Shown here: piece by piece, positions 10,219 to 44,563 of the stretch
Layout: each line of letters starts with the position of its first letter
Position numbering within the stretch: position 1 is the stretch's first letter
NCBI GenBank assembly: GCA_026338065.1
Contig: JAPKXI010000028.1
Span: 1 to 47,543 of the forward strand
From: Lachnospiraceae bacterium
Lineage (GTDB): Bacteria > Bacillota > Clostridia > Lachnospirales > Lachnospiraceae
Reading direction: 5' to 3'
DNA length: 47,543 nt
Position numbers and translations under genes: made by a program
The notes under the pieces: generated by a model
Told to the model about the DNA's origin: nothing
The model's input: the letters and a program-made list of their open reading frames with translations, nothing else
Databases searched by the model: none

Positions 10219-10337
10219 CTTTTTTCGTCCTTTCTGGCATTTTCCAGTTTAACAGGTTATTGCTTTTATTCTAGCACAAGAATCCTAAGATTGCAAAGAA
10301 AAGATATAGGAATCCTAGTCGAAAAGTGGGGGGAGGA

Positions 10338-10575
10338 CGCCAGAGTATGGCATTGCAGTACTGTTTCGCTCTACAGAAAGTAAGAAGCTCTAAGACTTCT
10401 GAATTTAGATGCATCCAACCGGACGGACCGGGGTGCAATTCGCCCGTGCTGCGGGCTAAACACACCCCTTTTTTTGCCATTCAAGAATGGCAAAAAATCC
10501 TAATGAATCGACAGAAGTCTAAAAGCTTCTAACTTTCCTCCGAAGTCACAGTACTGCAATGCCATACTCTGGCTG
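10338..10575 (-). repeat. Family A structured repeat, copy A2 (inverted relative to A1)
   Basis: Outer stem gccagagtatggcattgcagtactg/cagtactgcaatgccatactctggc is perfectly paired but differs in sequence from A1. The inner core and the tttttttgccattcaagaatggcaaaaaa hairpin are conserved. Confidence 0.85.
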
Positions 10576-10668
10576 TCTTTTTCCACAATATAGGTATTCT
10601 TTTTTCTCTTTTTTTGTTTTTTTAATCTATCAAGGAAGTAGCGGAGCGAATTCCGAATTTCCTTTGAC

Positions 10669-14574: not shown

Positions 14575-14834
14575 ACCAGCTGGAGTTTGGAAGCCCTTTC
14601 TCTATGCAGTGACTTCGGAGAAAAGTTAGAAAGTCTTATGCCTCTGTCGATCTCCTAGGATTTTTGCCATCTTCTGATGGCAAAAAAGGGGTGTGTTTAG
14701 CCCGCTGCACGGGCGAATTGCACCCCGGTCCGTCCGGTTGGATATATTTTCATTCAGAGGCATAAGACTTTCTTACTTTTCGGAGAGCGGAACAGCATAG
14801 AGAAAGGGCTTCCAAACTCCAGCGTCCTCTACAC
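14575..14834 (+). repeat. Family A structured repeat, copy A3
   Basis: Outer stem ccagctggagtttggaagccctttctctatgcag/cagcatagagaaagggcttccaaactccagcg. Second stem ttagaaagtcttatgcctctg/cagaggcataagactttcttac. Both carry compensatory changes relative to A1, and the core is identical to A1. Confidence 0.85.
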
Positions 14835-14970
14835 CATCCCCCAGCTTTTCCATCCTAATATCCACACATCATCCCCCAACTTTCCCATCTCAATATCCAC
14901 ACCATCCCCCCAACTTTCCCATCTCAGTATCCACACCATTCCCATTCCCCTCAACCTTCACTTTTTTCTA

Positions 14971-24430: not shown

Positions 24431-24624
24431 TGTGGTTCTCCTTACCCATAGTGTTACAAACCTGCTTCGATTAATCGAACATATATACGATTGTAGCAGA
24501 TTTTCTATTATCTGACAAGACCTTAATTCGAATCGATCGAATAGTAATCTGATTGTTTATAGTGAGCCAGAAAATTATTTATAGTGAGCCGAATGATTGT
24601 TTATGGCGATCCGGACGATTGCAT

Positions 24625-24748
24625 CTGCTGGTGAATCCCTGCTGGGGCCGTTTGCACTAAGGCTTCCTCGCAGCGGACACATAAGGCACGAAAGTACCGT
24701 GCCTAAGTGCCGGCGGGAAGCAATACCCCTGCAGGGATTCACCAGCAG
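24625..24748 (+). repeat. Family B repeat, copy B1: conserved ~93-nt core flanked by copy-specific perfect inverted arms
   Basis: Arms ctgctggtgaatccctgc / gcagggattcaccagcag. Core tggggccgtttgcactaaggcttcctcgcagcggacacataaggcacgaaagtaccgtgcctaagtgccggcgggaagcaataccc. Confidence 0.85.
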
Positions 24749-24790
24749 CTACAATCTGTCTATCTCAACGGAATGTTTGATAGAATCGCT

Positions 24791-25366: not shown

Positions 25367-25383
25367 AATAAGGTACAAAACAG

Positions 25384-25521
25384 CTCGCCCTAAGGGATCT
25401 TTCTTTGCTGGGGCCGTTTGCACTAAGGCTTCCTCGCAGCGGACACATAAGGCACGAAAAGACCGTGCCTAAGTGCCGGCGGGAAGCAATACCCCTGCAA
25501 AGAAAGATCCCTTAGGGCGAG
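25384..25521 (+). repeat. Family B repeat, copy B2
   Basis: Arms ctcgccctaagggatctttctttgc / gcaaagaaagatcccttagggcgag, a perfect 25-bp inverted repeat. Core identical to B3 and B4. Confidence 0.85.
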
Positions 25522-25629
25522 CGTCAGGACTACCCAAAACAATTCTAAATCAAACAATCCCAAACCACTCCAAACAATCGAAACTCTACAATAAATGAAA
25601 AACTTAGTATAAAATATATTATACCTATT

Positions 25630-28041: not shown

Positions 28042-28252
28042 CCTTCTTACCTCTCACTCTATTCATAAAATTTACAAAAAATTCCCGTCCTGCTTTCCTC
28101 TCTTCTCCTAATATATCACGAAATCTGCATTTTCACAACCTGATTTTACATTTTCACAATGCAAATTTCCTTTTTCAACCTAACAATACCCATTCCCAAG
28201 CAGCTCCATCTCGCCTTTTATTCTTTTTATCAATAAAAATACAGGAAAAAAC

Positions 28253-28501
28253 AGCCAGAGTTGGGAAGCGATTCTTTTTTGCTGTGACTTCGGAGAAAAG
28301 TTAGAACGTCTTATGCCTCTGTCGATCCACTAGGATTTTTTGCCATTTCCAAATGGCAAAAAAAGGCACGTGTTTAGCCTCCTGCAGAGGCGAATTGCGT
28401 GCCGATCCGTCCGGTTAGATGCACCTAAACTCAGAGGCATTAGCCGTTCTTACTTTTCGGAGAGCGGAACAGCAAAAAAGAATCGCTTCCAAACTCTAGC
28501 G
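28253..28501 (+). repeat. Family A structured repeat, copy A4
   Basis: Outer stem gccagagttgggaagcgattcttttttgctg/cagcaaaaaagaatcgcttccaaactctagcg. Core helices ggcacg/cgtgcc and cctc/gagg replace ggggtg/cacccc and cccg/cggg of the other copies, each change fully compensated. Confidence 0.85.
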
Positions 28502-28539
28502 TCCCCCTCCCCCCATTTCCCTACAAAACCCCCATTTCC

Positions 28540-30054
28540 CTACAAAACCCCCGTATCACTATCCACCTCAAACCAAAATTCCACCCCATTTTCCAAATTT
28601 CGAACCCCATATTCTTTATGATGAGCTTCCATAATTGCCTTTACAATCGACAGCCCAATCCCGCTCCCTCCATACTCTCTTGTCCGTGCCTTATCCACCT
28701 TATAAAACTTAATCCAAACCTTCCCCAACTCCTCCTCTGGAATCGGATTCCCTGTATTAAAAACAGACACCCTTACCGTATGCTCATTTTTTGTCAAAGA
28801 AACAACGATCTGCTTCTCTCCGCCTGCATAGTGAATCGCATTACTAATATAATTCGTAACCACTTCCTCTAACTGATACTCATCTCCCCATACAAAAACC
28901 GGCTCCCGCTGCTCGAATAAAACCGTAATCTTGTCCTGCCTGCATAAAATTTCAACCGACTGAATCACACCCAAAATCAATGCCGTCAAATCAAACCGCT
29001 CCATCGTAATCTGTTCCTGTCCAAATTCTAACTGATTTAAAGTCAGCAGTTTCTTTACCATTTTATTCATTTTATCTGCTTCATCTATAATTACTTCACA
29101 GTAAAACTCCCTGCTTTCTGCATCCTCATTAATCCCTTCTGCAAGCCCCTCCGCATATCCCTGAATCAATGCAATCGGCGTTTTTAATTCATGAGATACA
29201 TTCGATAAAAATTCCTTCCTTATCTCCTCCATCTGAATCTTCTGCTCAATATCCTTTTGCAGTTCATTATTTGCCGACTTTAATTCAGAAATCGTATGCT
29301 CTAACTTTTTGGAAAGTTCATTCATACTCTGCCCTAACACACCGATTTCATCTTTATCGTGCCGCTCATACTTTGCCTCAAAATCTAAATTAGACATTTT
29401 CCCCGATAATTCTGCCAATTCCAACAAAGGTCTAGTCAAACGCCTAGTAATCGTAATCGAAATCATAATAGCTAAAATACTGACAATTCCTCCCACATAG
29501 GCAACAAAACGATTGGAAATCTCTACACTTTCCTTTATACTTTCCACCGGAATACGAAGCAGCATATATTCTCTGGTATTAGGCTCCACCCCGAATAATT
29601 CCAAAAAATTAGTCGAATAGCGACTATCTTTATTTCGAAAAATACTATAATCCTCTTCCCTTTTTAAAGTCACCGCACTATTCTCAATTCCAAATAAATA
29701 AGGCATTACCAAATCCTGCAGGGTCTGTACATTGTGCACATTATAATAGACTGGTTTTAACATTCCTGTATTGGCATCCAAAATAATAAATGTAATATTG
29801 GATTTTTGGCACAACCCCTCTAACTCCAATGCTACCTCATCCGCCTTTTTATTACTCTGTACCAATTCACACATACTCACATAAGCATTTTCCAATTTTG
29901 TCTGTTTACTAATTAAATAATAATCTTCTAAAAATCGATTATTAATCAATAAAAGCAAAAAAACTGTACCAAAAGTCGCAAATAACATTAATGCTATTAT
30001 TTTGGTTCGAATAGAATATTGTATTTTCCCTACTAAACCTGCTATTTTACTCAT
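28540..30054 (-). CDS. Sensor histidine kinase (2 TM, HAMP, HisKA, HATPase_c)
   Basis: H-box SNVSHELKTPIALIQGYAEGL, with N, G1 and G2 boxes in the C-terminal third; 504 aa. Confidence 0.9.
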   Translation of the reverse strand: MSKIAGLVGKIQYSIRTKIIALMLFATFGTVFLLLLINNRFLEDYYLISKQTKLENAYVSMCELVQSNKKADEVALELEGLCQKSNITFIILDANTGMLKPVYYNVHNVQTLQDLVMPYLFGIENSAVTLKREEDYSIFRNKDSRYSTNFLELFGVEPNTREYMLLRIPVESIKESVEISNRFVAYVGGIVSILAIMISITITRRLTRPLLELAELSGKMSNLDFEAKYERHDKDEIGVLGQSMNELSKKLEHTISELKSANNELQKDIEQKIQMEEIRKEFLSNVSHELKTPIALIQGYAEGLAEGINEDAESREFYCEVIIDEADKMNKMVKKLLTLNQLEFGQEQITMERFDLTALILGVIQSVEILCRQDKITVLFEQREPVFVWGDEYQLEEVVTNYISNAIHYAGGEKQIVVSLTKNEHTVRVSVFNTGNPIPEEELGKVWIKFYKVDKARTREYGGSGIGLSIVKAIMEAHHKEYGVRNLENGVEFWFEVDSDTGVL

Positions 30055-32580: not shown

Positions 32581-32654
32581 TCGAGGTGACGTGATTCGAA
32601 CACGCGACTTCTACGTCCCGAACGTAGCGCTCTACCAAACTGAGCCACACCTCG
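32581..32654 (-). tRNA. tRNA-Pro (anticodon CGG)
   Basis: The reverse complement reads CGAGGTGTGGCTCAGTTTGGTAGAGCGCTACGTTCGGGACGTAGAAGTCGCGTGTTCGAATCACGTCACCTCGA, a 74-nt cloverleaf with anticodon loop TTCGGGA. Confidence 0.85.
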
Positions 32655-32680
32655 AACATAACACGGTTACGTTTAACCGA

Positions 32681-33043
32681 TGGAGCTGAGGGGAATCGAA
32701 CCCCTGTCCGAAGACTCCTCCATCAAAGCATCTCCCACCACAGTCCCTGTTTTATGCATAGCCTTTTTCTATACGGTTCCCTCTATCGGACACCCATGGA
32801 CAGGTTTCCGGCTTTAGTAGCTTCATTTTTCTTTTATACCCTCAAAGCTTTGGATACAAAGTTCCTTACCTCCTTGATGCCGGATTCTTAAGCAGTAAGC
32901 TACCTAAGAGCGACAGCTGCTATTAAGCAGCGAACGCGTAATCTTCGTTTGCGTTTATATTTAATTTTCGGTTTACTAATGCGGTTCCGACCCGCAGGTG
33001 GCTTCTCCAACTTCATAATCCCCGTCGAAACCAGTACAACCCC
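32681..33043 (-). ncRNA. ssrA: tmRNA (ssrA)
   Basis: 5' GGGGTTGTACTGGTTTCGACGGGGATTATGAAG and 3' GGGGTTCGATTCCCCTCAGCTCCA form the tRNA-like domain, with G3.U as the alanine identity pair. The internal tag reading frame is GCAAACGAAGATTACGCGTTCGCTGCTTAA (ANEDYAFAA*). Confidence 0.9.
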
Positions 33044-35427: not shown

Positions 35428-35649
35428 TCAACTATTCTCCTGAGATGCTTTTTCCTCTTGTGCTTTCTTTTTTCGATTCCGTGTCCCAAGAATTCCGCCG
35501 ATACGTCCGGTTTCCCGTGCAGAAAGCGTTCCCCATCCCCCTTTCAGCACTTTATCTAACACCCCAATTTCCTCTGCAATTTCTAATTTCATCTCATCCT
35601 CTGGTGTTAAATTCTCTAAATCAATTTCTTTCTTTTTCTTAGTCGGCAT
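35428..35649 (-). CDS. Alpha/beta-type small acid-soluble spore protein
   Basis: KLEIAEEIGV...GGWGTLSARETGRIGGILG is the SASP alpha/beta signature. Start placed at MPTKKKK, which has GGAGGAG 6 nt upstream. Confidence 0.8.
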   Translation of the reverse strand: MPTKKKKEIDLENLTPEDEMKLEIAEEIGVLDKVLKGGWGTLSARETGRIGGILGTRNRKKKAQEEKASQENS

Positions 35650-35795
35650 TACTCTCTCCTCCAATACTCTAATTTTACCAAGAGTATTTCCCTAATTTTC
35701 AAGGCTTATTCAATTTCTAAAGAAAAGTTATCAGAAAAAAGGAAAACCACTTCAGCAATTATAAACCAGATATTGGTATTGTAGAACCGGACGCA

Positions 35796-35929
35796 GGTAG
35801 CATAGAGAGATTCTTTGCTGGGGCCGTTTGCACTAAGGCTTCCTCGCAGCGGACACATAAGGCACGAAAAGACCGTGCCTAAGTGCCGGCGGGAAGCAAT
35901 ACCCCTGCAAAGAATCTCTCTATGCTACC
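35796..35929 (+). repeat. Family B repeat, copy B3
   Basis: Arms ggtagcatagagagattctttgc / gcaaagaatctctctatgctacc, with an identical core. Confidence 0.85.
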
Positions 35930-35937
35930 CGCTGTTT

Positions 35938-36148
35938 CGTTCCCCCTAGAAATAATGCCTCATAAACATTTTTATTCTACCTGTTGGTTTATTCCTCCTG
36001 GAAACAATACCTCACAAACATTTTTACTCTGCCTATTAACTTGTTCCTCCTGGAAATGATACTTCACAAAAATATTTTATTCGGTCTGCTGGTTTATTCC
36101 TCCTAAAAACAACGCCCCGTAAAAATTCTCTACTCCGACTGTTGGAAT
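35938..36148 (+). repeat. Degenerate tandem repeat, about 52 bp x 4
   Basis: Units of the form tcctcctggaaacaatacctcacaaacatttttactctgcctattaacttgt, with about 70% identity between units. Located upstream of the SASP gene. Confidence 0.6.
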
Positions 36149-36162
36149 TCAAAAGAAATTTG

Positions 36163-36279
36163 TAATCCTATGCTGCTATCGCAGCTTGTCAAATAGGGCT
36201 TGTACCCCACCTGCCCCCAACCCACCGCTTTCGCCTTGGCGGCTTAGAAGCGGGGGACTTCCTTGATGAGGTTAAACTA
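36163..36279 (+). repeat. Family C repeat, copy C4 (5' arm degraded)
   Basis: taatcctatgctgctatcgcagcttgtcaaatagggcttgta...ccaccgctttcgccttggcggcttagaagcgggggacttccttgatgaggttaaa. Confidence 0.7.
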
Positions 36280-36345
36280 TCTAAAATCACACAAAAACGG
36301 TTTTAATCAACCAAAATACTGCGACTGTTCCGGTTGGAATATACA

Positions 36346-36485
36346 GCTGACACCACTGGATGAATCTCTGCAGGGGTATTGCTTCCCGCCGGCACTTAGG
36401 CACGGTCTTTTCGTGCCTTATGTGTCCGCTGCGAGGAAGCCTTAGTGCAAACGGCCCCAGCAGAGATTCATCCAGTGGTGTCAGC
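36346..36485 (-). repeat. Family B repeat, copy B4 (inverted relative to B3)
   Basis: Arms gctgacaccactggatgaatctctgc / gcagagattcatccagtggtgtcagc, a perfect 26-bp inverted repeat, with an identical core. Confidence 0.85.
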
Positions 36486-36560
36486 GTCCCCCCAACAGAA
36501 AATCACCCAATGATGTCAGCGTCCCCCCAACATATATTCGTTTAAATTCAAATCATTCGC

Positions 36561-39500
36561 TTAAATTCGAATCTCTTTCCCCAATCCAAAAGAATACAAT
36601 ATCATCTCCCCAACTTCCTCCCCTGTCATCTGCTCCAATGCCATTTTATAAAGTTCAAACTGCCTCTCATACCGCATCACCAGCACTTCCTCCTGCCCTT
36701 CATAAACTGCATCTGTCTTATAATCCAACAGTACCAACTTCCCCTCCTCTTCAAAATAAACATCAATCACCCCCTGCAGTAAAATTAACTCCTGACTCTC
36801 TGTCTCCCGATATAACTTCCAAGCAGGAATCCCCACTACAAACTGCGTCTCCCGATAAATCTGCCCTCTCTTTTCTGCTTCCCGCATCCGCTTTGCCGTC
36901 TGAGAGGTTAAAAACGCCACAATCCTCTGATTCCAAATCAACTTAGCATTTTCTTTTGAAAGTTTCTTTTCCTCCACTAACTGCCGCTTTAACTGCCCGA
37001 TTCGTTTTGAAATCTCGTTCTCTTCCATTCCATCAAATTCTGCTAAATTCATATTTTCCAAAAAAATATGATAGGCGGTTCCTCGTGTTGCTCCTCCCAC
37101 ACCTTCTAATTTTCCCTGCATAAATTTCGGCAGAATCTCTTCTTTTTGTTCGATTAATAATGCCGTATCTTCTTCTGCTTCCATTTCTCTTTGATTCAAA
37201 CGTTTCTGCTCCGATACGGAAGTTTTTGCATAAAGTGACATTTCTTTCTGATAAGGATACAGATAAGAAAACCTCTTTTCTATCTCTTCTCTTAACTGAG
37301 GATCAAAACATTGCGAAAAATCCAGTTTCTTCTGATAATCGGATAAATCCATATTTTCTTTCTGCCGCAGAATCTCTCCCTCTGCAACTCCCTTTGGTGT
37401 ATAAAATGTAACTTCACAACTTTCTTTTGTGATCGCCGGTACAATCCAATCCAGATAGGACTCCGCTTTTGCAAGGGAAGCATAGGACAATGCCGCTCCT
37501 CCGTTTGTTTCTCTCCGCCACTTTTCATATCGTTCTGTCATCTTATCTGTTACACCGGTTAAAATCAGCTTTTCTTTTGCCCTTGTCAGTGCTACATATA
37601 AAATCCGCAGTTCTTCTCCAAGGTTTTCTAAACGAATACTTTTTTGAATAATTCGCTTGATTAAAACAGGAGCTTTCGTTCTGCGTTCATAATTTACAAA
37701 ATCTAATCCCACTCCTAAGTCGGGATGAATCACTGCTTTCTGCATAGCATCCATTTGATTAATCTTTTTTCCCATTCCGGCTACAATAACAATCGGAAAT
37801 TCCAGTCCTTTGCTCTTATGGATACTCATAATCCGAACGGTGTTGTCCTGTTCATTTACAATCGATGCTTCTCCGAAGTCCACCTCATATTGGTTGAGTT
37901 TTTCAATATAGCGGATAAAGTGAAAGACACCCCGATAACTGGTTGCTTCAAAGGCAATCGCTTTTTCTAACAGCATATCTAAATTCATTCTTCGTTTTGT
38001 TCCTGCCGGCATGGAAGCGGCATAATCTCCATAACCTGTTACTTTTAAGACTAATCGTATTAATTCATGAATAGGGGTACATGCTGCTTGATCCCGGAAA
38101 TATTCTAACTGTTCTAAAAATGCTTTTACTTTTTTATCTAGTTCTTCTTCTTCAACTGGAGAAAGCAGTGCTTCATAGAGATCTCCCTCTAGATGAGCCG
38201 AACGGATCTTTGCCAGTTCTAAGCTGCTGAAATGTCCAATCGGCGAGTGCAGAACCCCTGCTAATGGAATGTCCTGTCTGGGATTGTCAATAATTCTTAA
38301 TAGGTTTAATACCGTCTGTACTTCCAAGGCGGTAAAATATCCGGTCTGGGACTGGGTATGGGCAGGAATTCCTTCTTCCATGCAGATCGTTACAATCGTC
38401 TCTCCCCATCCTGCTACTGTACGCAAAAGGACAACAATATCCCTGTACTGTGCAGTCCGATAGGTACCCGACTTTTTGTCTAGAACTTTCAGACCGGTAT
38501 CTGGATGGGTCAGTCTTCGAATCTGACCGGCTATTACCTTTGCTTCCATTACCAGGGCTGTCATTTCTGCCGTTACCAGATCGGTGGTATCCTCTTCTTG
38601 GGATTTATTGATCAGCAGTAACTCGGTCTTTCGCTCCTGTGCTTCTGAACCGCCTTCTGGAAATGCTGCTCCCGGATAGAGTGCTGCTGCGTTGTCATAG
38701 GTTACGCCTCCTAATTCTTTCCGCATAATCTGATAAAAGATATCATTTACGCTCTGTAAGACCTCTGGACGGCTGCGGAAGTTTTTATGGAGATCAATTT
38801 TTTGATAATTGCTTTCTTCTGTGGTATATGTCTGATATTTTTCCACAAAAAGCTCGGGTCTTGCTAAACGAAACTTATAGATGCTTTGTTTTACATCTCC
38901 TACCATAAAGACATTGGGAATTTCTTCCTGATAGCGGGAAACGCTAAATAAAATTGCTTCCTGTACTAAATTGCTGTCCTGATATTCATCGATCATAATC
39001 TCTGTAAACTGATCCCGATATTCTTTTGCAATCAGTGACGGCACTCTTCCCTCTTTTGTCTGTTCGGTCAGGATATTAAGTGCCAAATGTTCTACATCCG
39101 AAAAATCCATTAAATTGCGTTCCCTTTTTTTTGCCTGATATCTGGTATGAAAGTCTAATGTCAGCCTTACCATTACCGCCATAGTCTTGCTTACATTTGC
39201 CATATTTTCCAGCATCTTATCGATTGGCTGAAAATAGAACTGCTTTCCGATTCCCCGAATTTCCTCTTTGATTCGATCTCGAATCTCTTTGACTCTTGCC
39301 TTTTTTTCAGCATCGATCGAGGAATCTTTTTTTGAGGATAAGCGGATAAAATTTACTTCTTTTAAAGCCTTTCCAAAACTTTGATAGGATTTACACTGCA
39401 CCAATTTTTCTAAATAATAGAAATCTGACTCAATAGCTGGAAGATACTGATAGGGACCTCTCTCCTGGCTGCAGATCTGTTTTGCCAGATCCAACTGTCT

Positions 39501-40241
39501 GCAGCAGTCCGTGATGAGTTTTTTTAGATATTCCATTAAAAACTGTACGGATTTAGTCTGCTCTAATGCTTTTCTATAAGCCTGTTCCATTGTTTTTTGT
39601 TCTTCCTGATCCAAAACTTCTTCCTCGGCTTGTTCCTCCATAGGGTATTCATTTAAGCAGCCTTTTAGCCATTCCTCCGGATCGGGATAACTCATTGCAA
39701 ATTCATAGAGCCGCAAAATCAAGTCTTCTAATCCGCTGTCATTTTTTCCGGTTGAATAACTCTCTACAAAATGAAAAAACTCCGGATCTGCCTCGCTGTA
39801 GTAATCCTCTAACAGTCCTGCTACTACATCTGATTTTAACAGTTTTCGCTCCCCCTCATCTCCAATTCGAAAAGAGGGATCAAAGTCTAACAGATCAAAG
39901 TGATCTCGAATCACACTCAGACAAAAACTGTCAATTGTCATAATTTGTGCCGTATGAACTAATGTCTGCTGTCTCTGCAAATGGGCATCTTCTGGGGCAT
40001 CTTCTAATGCTCGTTCAATAGCAGAAGTAATTCGTTCTCTCATCTCTGCAGCCGCAGCATTGGTAAATGTAACAATTAAAAGCCGGTCAATATCCACCGG
40101 ATTCTCCCGATCTGTAATCATCTGAATAATTCGTTCTACCAAAACGGCTGTTTTTCCTGAACCTGCCGCTGCCGAAACCAAAATTGCCCTATTCCTTAAA
40201 TAGATAACCTGTTCCTGTTCCTTTGTCCAATTTACTGCCAC
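36561..40241 (-). CDS. addA: ATP-dependent helicase/nuclease subunit A (UvrD-like, RecB-type nuclease)
   Basis: N-terminal Walker A AAAGSGKT, UvrD helicase motifs and a C-terminal PD-(D/E)xK nuclease; 1226 aa; overlaps addB by 10 nt. Confidence 0.95.
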   Translation of the reverse strand: MAVNWTKEQEQVIYLRNRAILVSAAAGSGKTAVLVERIIQMITDRENPVDIDRLLIVTFTNAAAAEMRERITSAIERALEDAPEDAHLQRQQTLVHTAQIMTIDSFCLSVIRDHFDLLDFDPSFRIGDEGERKLLKSDVVAGLLEDYYSEADPEFFHFVESYSTGKNDSGLEDLILRLYEFAMSYPDPEEWLKGCLNEYPMEEQAEEEVLDQEEQKTMEQAYRKALEQTKSVQFLMEYLKKLITDCCRQLDLAKQICSQERGPYQYLPAIESDFYYLEKLVQCKSYQSFGKALKEVNFIRLSSKKDSSIDAEKKARVKEIRDRIKEEIRGIGKQFYFQPIDKMLENMANVSKTMAVMVRLTLDFHTRYQAKKRERNLMDFSDVEHLALNILTEQTKEGRVPSLIAKEYRDQFTEIMIDEYQDSNLVQEAILFSVSRYQEEIPNVFMVGDVKQSIYKFRLARPELFVEKYQTYTTEESNYQKIDLHKNFRSRPEVLQSVNDIFYQIMRKELGGVTYDNAAALYPGAAFPEGGSEAQERKTELLLINKSQEEDTTDLVTAEMTALVMEAKVIAGQIRRLTHPDTGLKVLDKKSGTYRTAQYRDIVVLLRTVAGWGETIVTICMEEGIPAHTQSQTGYFTALEVQTVLNLLRIIDNPRQDIPLAGVLHSPIGHFSSLELAKIRSAHLEGDLYEALLSPVEEEELDKKVKAFLEQLEYFRDQAACTPIHELIRLVLKVTGYGDYAASMPAGTKRRMNLDMLLEKAIAFEATSYRGVFHFIRYIEKLNQYEVDFGEASIVNEQDNTVRIMSIHKSKGLEFPIVIVAGMGKKINQMDAMQKAVIHPDLGVGLDFVNYERRTKAPVLIKRIIQKSIRLENLGEELRILYVALTRAKEKLILTGVTDKMTERYEKWRRETNGGAALSYASLAKAESYLDWIVPAITKESCEVTFYTPKGVAEGEILRQKENMDLSDYQKKLDFSQCFDPQLREEIEKRFSYLYPYQKEMSLYAKTSVSEQKRLNQREMEAEEDTALLIEQKEEILPKFMQGKLEGVGGATRGTAYHIFLENMNLAEFDGMEENEISKRIGQLKRQLVEEKKLSKENAKLIWNQRIVAFLTSQTAKRMREAEKRGQIYRETQFVVGIPAWKLYRETESQELILLQGVIDVYFEEEGKLVLLDYKTDAVYEGQEEVLVMRYERQFELYKMALEQMTGEEVGEMILYSFGLGKEIRI

Positions 40242-43702: not shown

Positions 43703-43832
43703 GAAATCCCTCCTTTGTTTATTCCAGTCAGCTATAAAAATTCTTATTTTCTATTATAACATACCATCTAAAAAGATACCACCTTTTCAGACAGCAGAAG
43801 AAACTCATATCCAAAAAAATTCCCCGGAAATA

Positions 43833-44068
43833 ACGCCAGAGTACTTGAAAGGGAACTGTTCCGCTCTCCGAAAAGCAGAAGCTCTAAGACTTCTGAATCT
43901 AGGCATATCCAACCGGACGGATCGGGGTGCAATTCGCCCGTACAGCGGGCTAAACACACCCCTTTTTTTGCCATTCGAGAATGGCAAAAAATCCTAGTGG
44001 ATTGACAGAAGTCTAAGAGCTTCTAACTTTCCTCCGAAGTCACAGTTCCCTTTCAAGTACTCTGGCTG
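43833..44068 (-). repeat. Family A structured repeat, copy A5 (inverted)
   Basis: Outer stem gccagagtacttgaaagggaactg/cagttccctttcaagtactctggc. Conserved core and the ttgccattcgagaatggcaa hairpin. Confidence 0.85.
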
Positions 44069-44175
44069 TATTGTCTCACAATCTACTTTTTTTCTCTTTG
44101 CTCCATTATATTCTTATTCTTTTTTGTTAAATTTCCTTCTTTCTTTTTTTATTAAAAATAATTTTAGAATTTTTG

Positions 44176-44216
44176 CATTGGTCAAAGCGGATTGCGAATA
44201 TCCGATTTGACTATCC
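44176..44216 (-). repeat. Family C leader module only
   Basis: The reverse complement gatagtcaaatcggatattcgcaatccgctttgacc matches the C1 and C2 leader tcaaatcggatattcgcaatccgctttg. Confidence 0.5.
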
Positions 44217-44563
44217 CTATCAGACATTTCTCTATATCAGCCGTAATCATTTTATGCTTGTATTTTACACACCAAACAATATGATATTGGATGGAATATA
44301 CCTATCCACGTCCATGAGTCACTTCCATATAGAATCACCTCGTTATACAAACGATAATAGATGTATGTTGTTATATCAATTATTTTTAGCATTATTACTT
44401 GAAATTTAATTAACATATGTGAGCAATTCATCCCACGACTAAATGCTCATGTACGGTAAAGAAACAAGAAACCGAAAACAAGAGATAGACCTCCAGCACC
44501 ACACTATTCCGAACCAAAGACCAAAAGACAAGCATGATGGAATCCCTCTCTCATTCCTTTATG

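Follow-up and report, generated by a model that had tools for sequence, protein, structure and literature searches.

The present analysis concerns the intergenic spacer between addA and the gene of a small acid-soluble spore protein (SASP) in a Lachnospiraceae bacterium (GenBank assembly GCA_026338065.1, contig JAPKXI010000028.1), studied within a stretch of 47,543 nucleotides that is referred to here as the window. This spacer, which extends over 911 bp between the SASP start codon (ATG at 35649) and the addA open reading frame (ORF; 36561-40241), is well supported as a lineage-specific pile-up of three kinds of non-coding, structured interspersed repeat, framed by a divergent pair of a dispersed hairpin element, family B. 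Its block structure is not a product of chance, because the stem of B carries compensatory changes: across 32 copies, 27 of the 56 base pairs evaluated with RNAalifold still pair after changes on both sides. Judged from its sequence and fold, B is an undescribed hairpin family that shares its end structure with the orphan RNA motif TwoAYGGAY.

Read from the SASP gene towards addA, the spacer begins with the native SASP upstream region (35650-35788, minus strand), which was aligned with the relatives L050 and L051 and in which blastn homology resumes at 35726. It is followed by the body of the first B copy, B3 (35789-35935, minus strand; 194 bits with the B covariance model R1), composed of ACAG, a 25-bp stem, the invariant core, the complementary stem and CGTCC, with its 3' end directed toward the SASP gene and its own 5' leader, in the alignment a diverged form of TGTTCYGGTTGGAATA-N, at 35936-35958 on the same strand. 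An array of about four 52-bp units, detected by tandem and repeat searches, occupies 35937-36148 (minus strand), and next to it lies C4 (36150-36282, plus strand), a copy of an independent structured repeat family recognised by repeat search and by comparison with the full copy C1. The second B copy, B4, has a 5' leader GTTCCGGTTGGAATA that matches the family consensus exactly (36320-36342, plus strand) and a body at 36343-36489 (plus strand; 197.7 bits with the B covariance model); it is convergent with addA, and its 3' CGTCC end stands 72 nt from the addA stop codon. The last block is a 35-bp × 2.2 tandem duplication of the B4 3' arm (CCCCAGCAGAG...GCGTCC; 36455-36532, plus strand; repeat searches). 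A further 19-bp × 2 tandem (ATTCGCTTAAATTCAAATC) at 36536-36573 spans the addA stop codon and was present in all strains examined.

An initial annotation of this DNA had listed the same blocks, namely B3, the 52-bp array, C4, B4 and a 19-bp repeat, and each of them is present, with coordinates right within a few bases. It had placed B3 at 35796-35929 and B4 at 36346-36485, where the full hairpins cover 35789-35935, with a leader extending to 35958, and 36343-36489, with a leader beginning at 36320. Both copies of the 19-bp direct repeat, at 36479-36497 and 36514-36532, are exact and lie a single base away from the positions first given; the repeat sits inside the 35-bp × 2.2 tandem and so belongs to the duplication of the B4 3' arm. 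The absence of an ORF from the spacer was likewise confirmed, as the longest ORFs reach at most 61 aa and every one of them overlaps repeats, and the two B copies described as lying in opposite orientation are indeed an 85% complementary inverted pair of the dispersed hairpin. The B copies fold at -85 to -97 kcal/mol each, with z values of -10 to -12.7 against shuffled sequences.

The B element measures about 175 nt and consists of a 16-nt leader, ACAG, a stem of about 25 bp, an 89-nt core, the complementary stem and CGTCC. The semi-conserved leader, TGTTCYGGTTGGAATA-N, is followed by the invariant ACAG and by the stem of free sequence. Next come TCTYTGC, which is conserved, an A-A mismatch that never varies, a helix of GGGG/CCCC and the invariant core, which is one irregular hairpin whose apical stem covaries too; the CGTCC end often continues with GG. 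The alignment of 32 full copies needed no gaps. In the four B copies of the window the core of about 90 nt is essentially identical, and the outer stems of about 25 bp differ yet pair almost perfectly within each copy. Throughout the family the stems are 43% different between copies, versus 0.66% for the non-apical core, and conservation in the arms is confined to ACAG, CGTCC and the 7 bp next to the core; the outer-stem pairs nevertheless comprise 795 Watson-Crick, 23 G-U, 2 A-C and 12 other pairs, that is, about 96% Watson-Crick. The stem of B is free to vary in sequence but must pair, and the core is nearly invariant. A peptide-coding role was considered and rejected, since the short ORFs over B are not credible, the core is invariant at the nucleotide level and the stems covary.

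The folded state also has a preferred strand. With the sense strand of B defined as the one that reads 5'-ACAG...CGTCC-3', the excess of G-U pairs falls on this strand, with G-U to A-C counts of 10:0 and 13:2 for copies on the two locus strands, of 11:2 for copies behind stop codons and of 10:0 for copies ahead of genes. Because the asymmetry holds on both strands and in both gene contexts, it is intrinsic to the element, and a mutation bias of replication or transcription was rejected as its cause on the same grounds.

The lineage-specific origin of the spacer emerges from the comparison of strains and relatives. Across the six same-species assemblies compared at the locus, B3, B4 and the 35-bp repeat occur in all six; the check between strains that the initial annotation had proposed thus gave B3 and B4 as fixed, block C as absent, single or double according to strain (C4 is absent in L003 and doubled in L005) and the 52-bp units as variable. 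Relatives whose AddA proteins are 90, 85 and 75% identical have spacers of 160, 58 and 166 bp, respectively, versus 911 bp here, and these three short spacers contain no B, no C and no array. The extra DNA is confined to positions 35726-36560 of the window, and from the difference in length it follows that the whole composite is a lineage-specific addition. The suspicion of an insertion hotspot has therefore proved apt: the spacer is a site of accretion, with 58-166 bp in relatives grown to 911 bp and a copy number of C that varies between strains. In a relative with an 88% identical AddA, an A-type element stands at the place of B4, antisense to addA and 19 nt after its stop codon, which argues that this spot was hit independently by different family members. 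Relatives without the array have conserved the 85-110 bp or so that adjoin the SASP start, a segment that includes a promoter-like stretch, GAATAAG...GGGAAATACT, a putative promoter of forespore type (sigma-F/G consensus).

The 52-bp array was reported by Tandem Repeats Finder at 35940-36112 (period 52, 3.3 copies, 75% matches) and by a second repeat search as four units across 35918-36127 with 75-77% identity, in agreement with the degenerate fourfold array first described, at 3.3 to 4 units. Each unit corresponds to the B3 leader, ACAG and the first 10 nt or so of the arm, followed by about 25 nt of flank. Such units were found only at this locus and at its orthologue L036, and their sequences differ between strains. 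Other elements have arrays at their edges as well, of 34 bp × 3.3 by A2, 19 bp × 2.3 by A3, 22 bp × 3.2 by B1 and 35 bp × 2.2 by B4; about eight 40-nt leader units stand beside the element at L022, with further edge arrays elsewhere in a conspecific metagenome-assembled genome (MAG), and the array of A2 has 3, 4 or 5 units depending on the strain. Comparable leader or arm arrays flank A and B copies beside unrelated genes. On the composition of its units, the 52-bp array can be read as a local tandem amplification of the B3 leader and arm edge, and the 35-bp repeat likewise as one of the B4 3' arm. Replication slippage beside a very stable hairpin would be the simplest and most likely cause of both.

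B is a large family. About 40 copies were counted in the conspecific mouse-gut Lachnospiraceae MAG MGBC128194, whose locus L036 is 97% identical to the addA-SASP spacer, so that the window stems from that species or one very near to it; six of the B copies were added by a search with the covariance model. An exact 25-mer of the core occurs in only 2 of 185,579 species representatives, with nearly all matches in MGBC128194; no B or A copies were found on plasmids, phages or viral contigs, and no B copies were found in JGI metagenomes. The two remaining copies of the window are B1, with its body at 24613-24759 (minus strand; model and shell search) and the 22-bp × 3.2 array (24550-24621) adjoining its 3' edge, and B2 (25380-25526, plus strand), which scores 175 bits on the minus strand and 59.5 bits on the plus strand and, alone among the 33 full copies of the initial set, has its core turned around within the ACAG...CGTC shell. 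Such a flipped core is the expected product of recombination between the 30-bp arms of B2 itself. Ten B copies of MGBC128194 (L007, L009, L011, L012, L014, L018, L019, L030, L035 and L036) are truncated by contig ends, which suggests that these hairpin repeats are a leading reason why the assembly of this MAG is broken.

The relationship of B to a described RNA motif comes from family A, which scores as the Rfam family RF01731, TwoAYGGAY: the window copies A4 and A1 reach 68.2 and 63.7 bits, on the strand inferred as sense, and the MAG copy L020 reaches 73.1 bits, against a gathering cut-off of 43. The 47.5-kb window holds five A copies of about 240-255 nt each. A1 (4429-4679, plus strand), with a TwoAYGGAY-type core enclosed in the ACAG...CGTCC shell, and A4 (10335-10576, minus strand), also of TwoAYGGAY type, were identified by their RF01731 scores and by shell search; A2 (14576-14827, plus strand) has the 34-bp array (14831-14943) at its 3' edge; A3 (28251-28504, plus strand; shell search) has the 19-bp × 2.3 array (28510-28552) at its 3' edge; and A5 (43831-44069, minus strand; shell search) sits upstream of addB, where synteny with relatives stops. 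An Rfam run at the gathering threshold with default filters returned none of these five copies, and permissive runs placed A1 and A4 well above the cut-off, so standard annotation probably undercounts the TwoAYGGAY family.

The Rfam model spans only the inner part of A, and the outer free-sequence stem with its ACAG and CGTCC ends lies outside the matched span. These outer parts are precisely what A has in common with B, as both have the same leader, ACAG, outer stem and CGTCC shell around different cores, the core of B being without detectable similarity to that of TwoAYGGAY. One shell therefore holds two cargoes, A and B. A structure-agnostic search for this shell in 320 kb returned cargoes of 147 nt (B) or 239-255 nt (A) and no others; a protein-coding cargo, also considered, was not found there. 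The shell is present as well in A-type copies from unrelated metagenomes, which likewise form divergent pairs; intergenic placement is a further trait that TwoAYGGAY, as represented by the A copies here, shares with B. For B3 and B4, a scan of 35600-36620 with E ≤10 gave no Rfam family, only generic long-hairpin matches (microRNA precursors). TwoAYGGAY itself was rated as probably an RNA and not cis-regulatory, and it was described from gut Clostridiales, which match the host group here (Weinberg et al., 2010; PMC2864571). One metagenomic A copy (L057, 1355-1605) has fully palindromic flanks, in which ACAGC and the leader are mirrored as GCTGT and the reverse-complemented leader, so that both ends are of the 5' type. 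At A5, synteny with L050, L051 and L052 ends just upstream of addB, at the A copy and a C fragment (compared region 43788-44563), and beyond this breakpoint the neighbouring gene differs, being of HxlR type here and an unrelated 155-aa ORF in the relatives.

Family C is of another kind. The full-length reference copy C1 (1627-1790, plus strand), established by repeat search and folding, forms a closing stem with three hairpins (z about -10), and only sub-threshold Rfam matches were obtained for the family. The repeat-search span of C4 is 36163-36276, and this copy is 86% identical to C3 (31495-31640, plus strand), which is absent from the relative L051, where only the terminator hairpin of the upstream gene is common to both. 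The idea that C and B form one unit was rejected, because no more than 3 of the 12 C copies are located upstream of B; C is thus an independent structured repeat family, and C4 merely shares the spacer with the B elements.

The placement of the elements follows strict rules. Adjacent B copies are divergent in 12 of 12 pairs, with the leaders inward and the CGTCC ends outward (p = 6e-8 under random orientation); B3 and B4 are one of these pairs, and A copies pair likewise. The spacers inside B pairs measure 88-646 nt and are unrelated to one another. One of them (L023, 2016-2663) holds a small ORF of about 85 aa, Cys/Gly-rich and hydrophobic, with a sequence resembling a ribosome-binding site upstream. 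The CGTCC end lies past a convergent stop codon, at a median distance of about 40 nt, in 25 of 44 elements, and in the other 19 it faces the start of a co-directional gene at 117-486 nt. The two directions of passage through an element differ in their exits: the 10 nt after the stem contain 5.5 U on the antisense exit versus 2.5 on the sense exit, so that a transcript arriving from the upstream gene meets a long hairpin followed by CUGU-N-UAUUCC, an interrupted U-run, and the tail in the sense direction is CGUCCGG. The host would be expected to tolerate mainly the orientation in which transcripts of the upstream gene meet the hairpin and the U-rich tail. Oriented in this way, the element would behave as a terminator of the repetitive extragenic palindrome (REP) type or as a 3'-end stabiliser, and transcripts toward the downstream gene would pass it in the non-terminating direction.

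How the copies arise can be followed at several loci. An orthologous B copy in a second species, from the comparison of L016 with L017, shows five fully compensated stem substitutions and one C-A pair; the core has a single change in 88 nt, located in the apical loop, and the neighbouring spacer DNA is roughly 17-20% diverged. Within the species, one stem position of B3 is found with its original pair, with a mismatch as the intermediate step, and with pairing restored by compensation. Near-identical stems at different loci (L021 and L028; L024 and L037) point to copying and divergence from several source copies, and the apical-stem variants, which are shuffled relative to the stems and shared, when rare, by pair partners with unrelated outer stems (both L034 copies), point to gene conversion among cores. 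The copies multiply by copying and divergence, and they were added after the split from close relatives. It was also considered that each stem is made from target DNA upon insertion, an idea rejected on account of the near-identical stems at different loci together with the stepwise mutation and compensation.

As an explanation of the whole, it is considered probable, with appreciable room for doubt, that the spacer is a pile-up of A/B/C repeats in which hairpins enclosed in one shell are mobilised in trans and their orientation is filtered by a one-way terminator effect. The elements would be non-autonomous and would be copied by an enzyme whose gene lies at another place, perhaps a reverse transcriptase or a nuclease of HUH type. 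This enzyme would recognise the folded single strand (RNA or single-stranded DNA) by way of its invariant core and its conserved ends, ACAG and CGTCC. A bolder form of this explanation, offered tentatively and as a possibility of low probability, makes the shell a portable recognition module, such that one reverse transcriptase or HUH-type enzyme would copy any enclosed core via a folded single-stranded intermediate; the elements would also be one-way terminators, their pairs two-sided insulators and the edge arrays footprints of copying.

Several observations weigh against trans-mobilisation with terminator filtering. No reverse transcriptase or transposase was found among the 30 genes of the window or the 178 ORFs of at least 200 aa in about 240 kb around other copies, a sample of about 7% of the MAG genome. 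No clean unoccupied site with exact junctions was recovered; the one missing copy, a pair partner in L017, was discarded as a candidate because it had been deleted at GTTTTT microhomology, with 13 nt of its arm still in place. Nor was a target-site duplication found: leader and tail, considered as such a duplication, are no more similar within a copy (9.6) than between copies (9.0) or with shuffled tails (9.4), and the leader as a free-standing target site was rejected because it is not enriched in the window. The B copies are fixed in every strain sampled and so give no sign of ongoing mobility, and the core remains intact at old orthologous loci, where a purely selfish repeat predicts decay unless gene conversion homogenises the cores. 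As for the filter, a simple intrinsic-terminator scan reports nothing, the hairpin being too long and complex for its rules, and it is position and U content that suggest the terminator-like role. The wobble-tolerant strand is, moreover, opposite to the strand of the upstream gene's transcript, so that two separate roles must be assumed.

Of the alternatives, the one that retains most ground, albeit still as an unlikely account, regards A and B as multi-copy host small-RNA genes of the TwoAYGGAY type, in which the long outer stem would be a stalk for processing, by RNase III for instance, and the core would be set free as the mature RNA; divergent pairs would be transcribed outward from the spacer that they share. 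It would accommodate the core kept invariant at an old orthologous locus, where the stem diverges about as fast as the adjacent spacer and stays paired, as well as the tolerance of G-U on one strand whatever the context, the published rating of TwoAYGGAY as an RNA (PMC2864571) and the 5' leaders that face a common spacer in divergent pairs. On the other side, no conserved promoter occurs at a fixed distance upstream of the leader; conservation ends about 20 nt beyond ACAG, and a sigma-70-type scan shows no enrichment (5 sites versus 2.3 ± 1.6 expected). At least 40 near-identical genes, new in one lineage and absent at the same sites in close relatives, would be unusual for a host RNA, and the tight placement of the 3' ends about 40 nt past stop codons and the edge arrays are left unexplained.

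Somewhat less likely again is the proposal of retro-mobile, SINE-like hairpins: the elements would serve a reverse transcriptase, with its gene at some other location, as templates or partners and would be copied through RNA and cDNA, and their arrays would be traces left when cDNA synthesis and integration were reiterated or aborted. An RNA intermediate is in keeping with the strand-specific tolerance of wobble pairs, and the arrays do stand exactly at element edges, where they repeat the leader or terminal arm; what they repeat, however, is the edge with its local flank and not the core, and the 52-bp array occurs at its own locus only, which is better explained by local slippage. No reverse transcriptase adjoins any of the approximately 55 copies examined, neither a poly-A tail nor a target-site duplication was found, and error-prone reverse transcription would mutate the core too.

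It is improbable that the elements are functionless DNA palindromes, kept perfect by replication template-switching that corrects quasipalindromes, homogenised by ectopic gene conversion and surviving where they are harmless. Correction at the DNA level should be strand-symmetric, and the G-U versus A-C count of 23 to 2 falls on one strand in every context. This account has in its favour that stem changes are compensated at about the divergence of neighbouring spacer DNA, that the shuffling of apical variants relative to stems and their presence in both pair partners is what gene conversion produces, and that deletion remnants and slippage arrays occur at the edges; the roughly 40 copies, the conserved unpaired ACAG and CGTCC ends, the conserved A-A mismatch and the 12 of 12 divergent pairs find no explanation in it.

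Finally, the proposals of the initial annotation that B3 and B4 bound a composite or invertible segment, or that the 52-bp units are regulator sites of the sporulation-specific SASP promoter, are very improbable even if the inverted arrangement and the internal repeats are real and the array does lie upstream of the SASP gene, as the 12 pairs all enclose different DNA, that of B3 and B4 occurring only at this locus, the divergent layout is standard, no transposase was found in the sequence sampled, the six assemblies show no inversion, the SASP gene and the region just upstream of it persist in relatives without the array, and the units are copies of the B3 leader that differ between strains and have counterparts beside unrelated genes.

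The preferred explanation, of trans-mobilised hairpins in a common shell, has its nearest parallels in known families of small repeats. REP palindromes, like the hairpins described here, are adjoined by a conserved tetranucleotide, and REP/REPINs are mobilised by RAYT/TnpA-REP. The elements described here resemble the REP/REPINs of proteobacteria as short, extragenic, multi-copy palindromes that lie after gene ends, often in inverted pairs, with locations that vary by lineage and a hairpin kept by compensatory change. They differ in that the stem varies and the large loop, here the core, is conserved, the reverse of REPINs; in that the ends are ACAG...CGTCC and not GTAG; and in that the host is a Firmicute. 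In a bioRxiv report (10.64898/2026.03.23.713779), REPs are described as able to act as partial terminators and mRNA stabilisers in 3' untranslated regions. No RAYT gene was found among the 178 ORFs sampled.

Miniature inverted-repeat transposable elements (MITEs) and the Correia, RUP, BOX, ERIC and bcr1 elements are small, non-coding, multi-copy intergenic hairpins with species-specific copy numbers, and they can carry terminator or promoter activity. B is likewise small, non-coding, multi-copy and intergenic, folds into a stable hairpin and is absent from the spacer of relatives while fixed within the species. Unlike MITEs, it has terminal inverted repeats that are not conserved between copies (43% different) and no target-site duplication, and no related autonomous element was found in the 320-kb shell search. 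The attC sites of integrons combine conserved short end motifs with a variable stem, in which the fold and specific unpaired bases are kept, and one folded strand is active. B shares the conserved short ends, the variable paired stem, the specific unpaired bases and the single folded strand; it differs in having no cassette, integrase or array context, in its large invariant core and in the scattering of its copies among housekeeping genes.

The remaining features of the window can be given briefly. An ORF at 46011-46559 encodes the C-terminal part only of an IstB-like IS21 helper ATPase; it looks like the remnant of an insertion sequence, and the window contains no other trace of a transposon. 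An 812-aa protein (1902-4340, minus strand) joins Pfam Major Vault Protein shoulder and repeat domains with SPFH/Band 7, an unusual combination for a bacterium. A tmRNA (tag ANEDYAFAA) and a tRNA-Pro(CGG) at 32581-33043, between genes for an MCP-domain protein and HPr, are ordinary, with no repeat element adjoining them.

For the spacer itself, the outcome is a corrected reading of the 52-bp array, which is not a sporulation control region. For TwoAYGGAY, an orphan RNA motif since 2010, the results introduce constraints: it shares its hairpin shell with a second cargo, its copies have multiplied recently in a single lineage, they follow strict rules of orientation and pairing, and one strand clearly emerges as the folded and selected strand. 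Family B provides a second, shorter example, whose approximately 40 copies with very strong covariation make a clean alignment for structure work. In practical terms, these hairpin elements break short-read assemblies of gut Lachnospiraceae, as seen in the many copies at contig ends, and the default filters of Rfam can miss them. If the bolder form of the explanation is true, these mobile hairpins of gut Clostridia would make up a new class of element, non-autonomous and defined by its structure.

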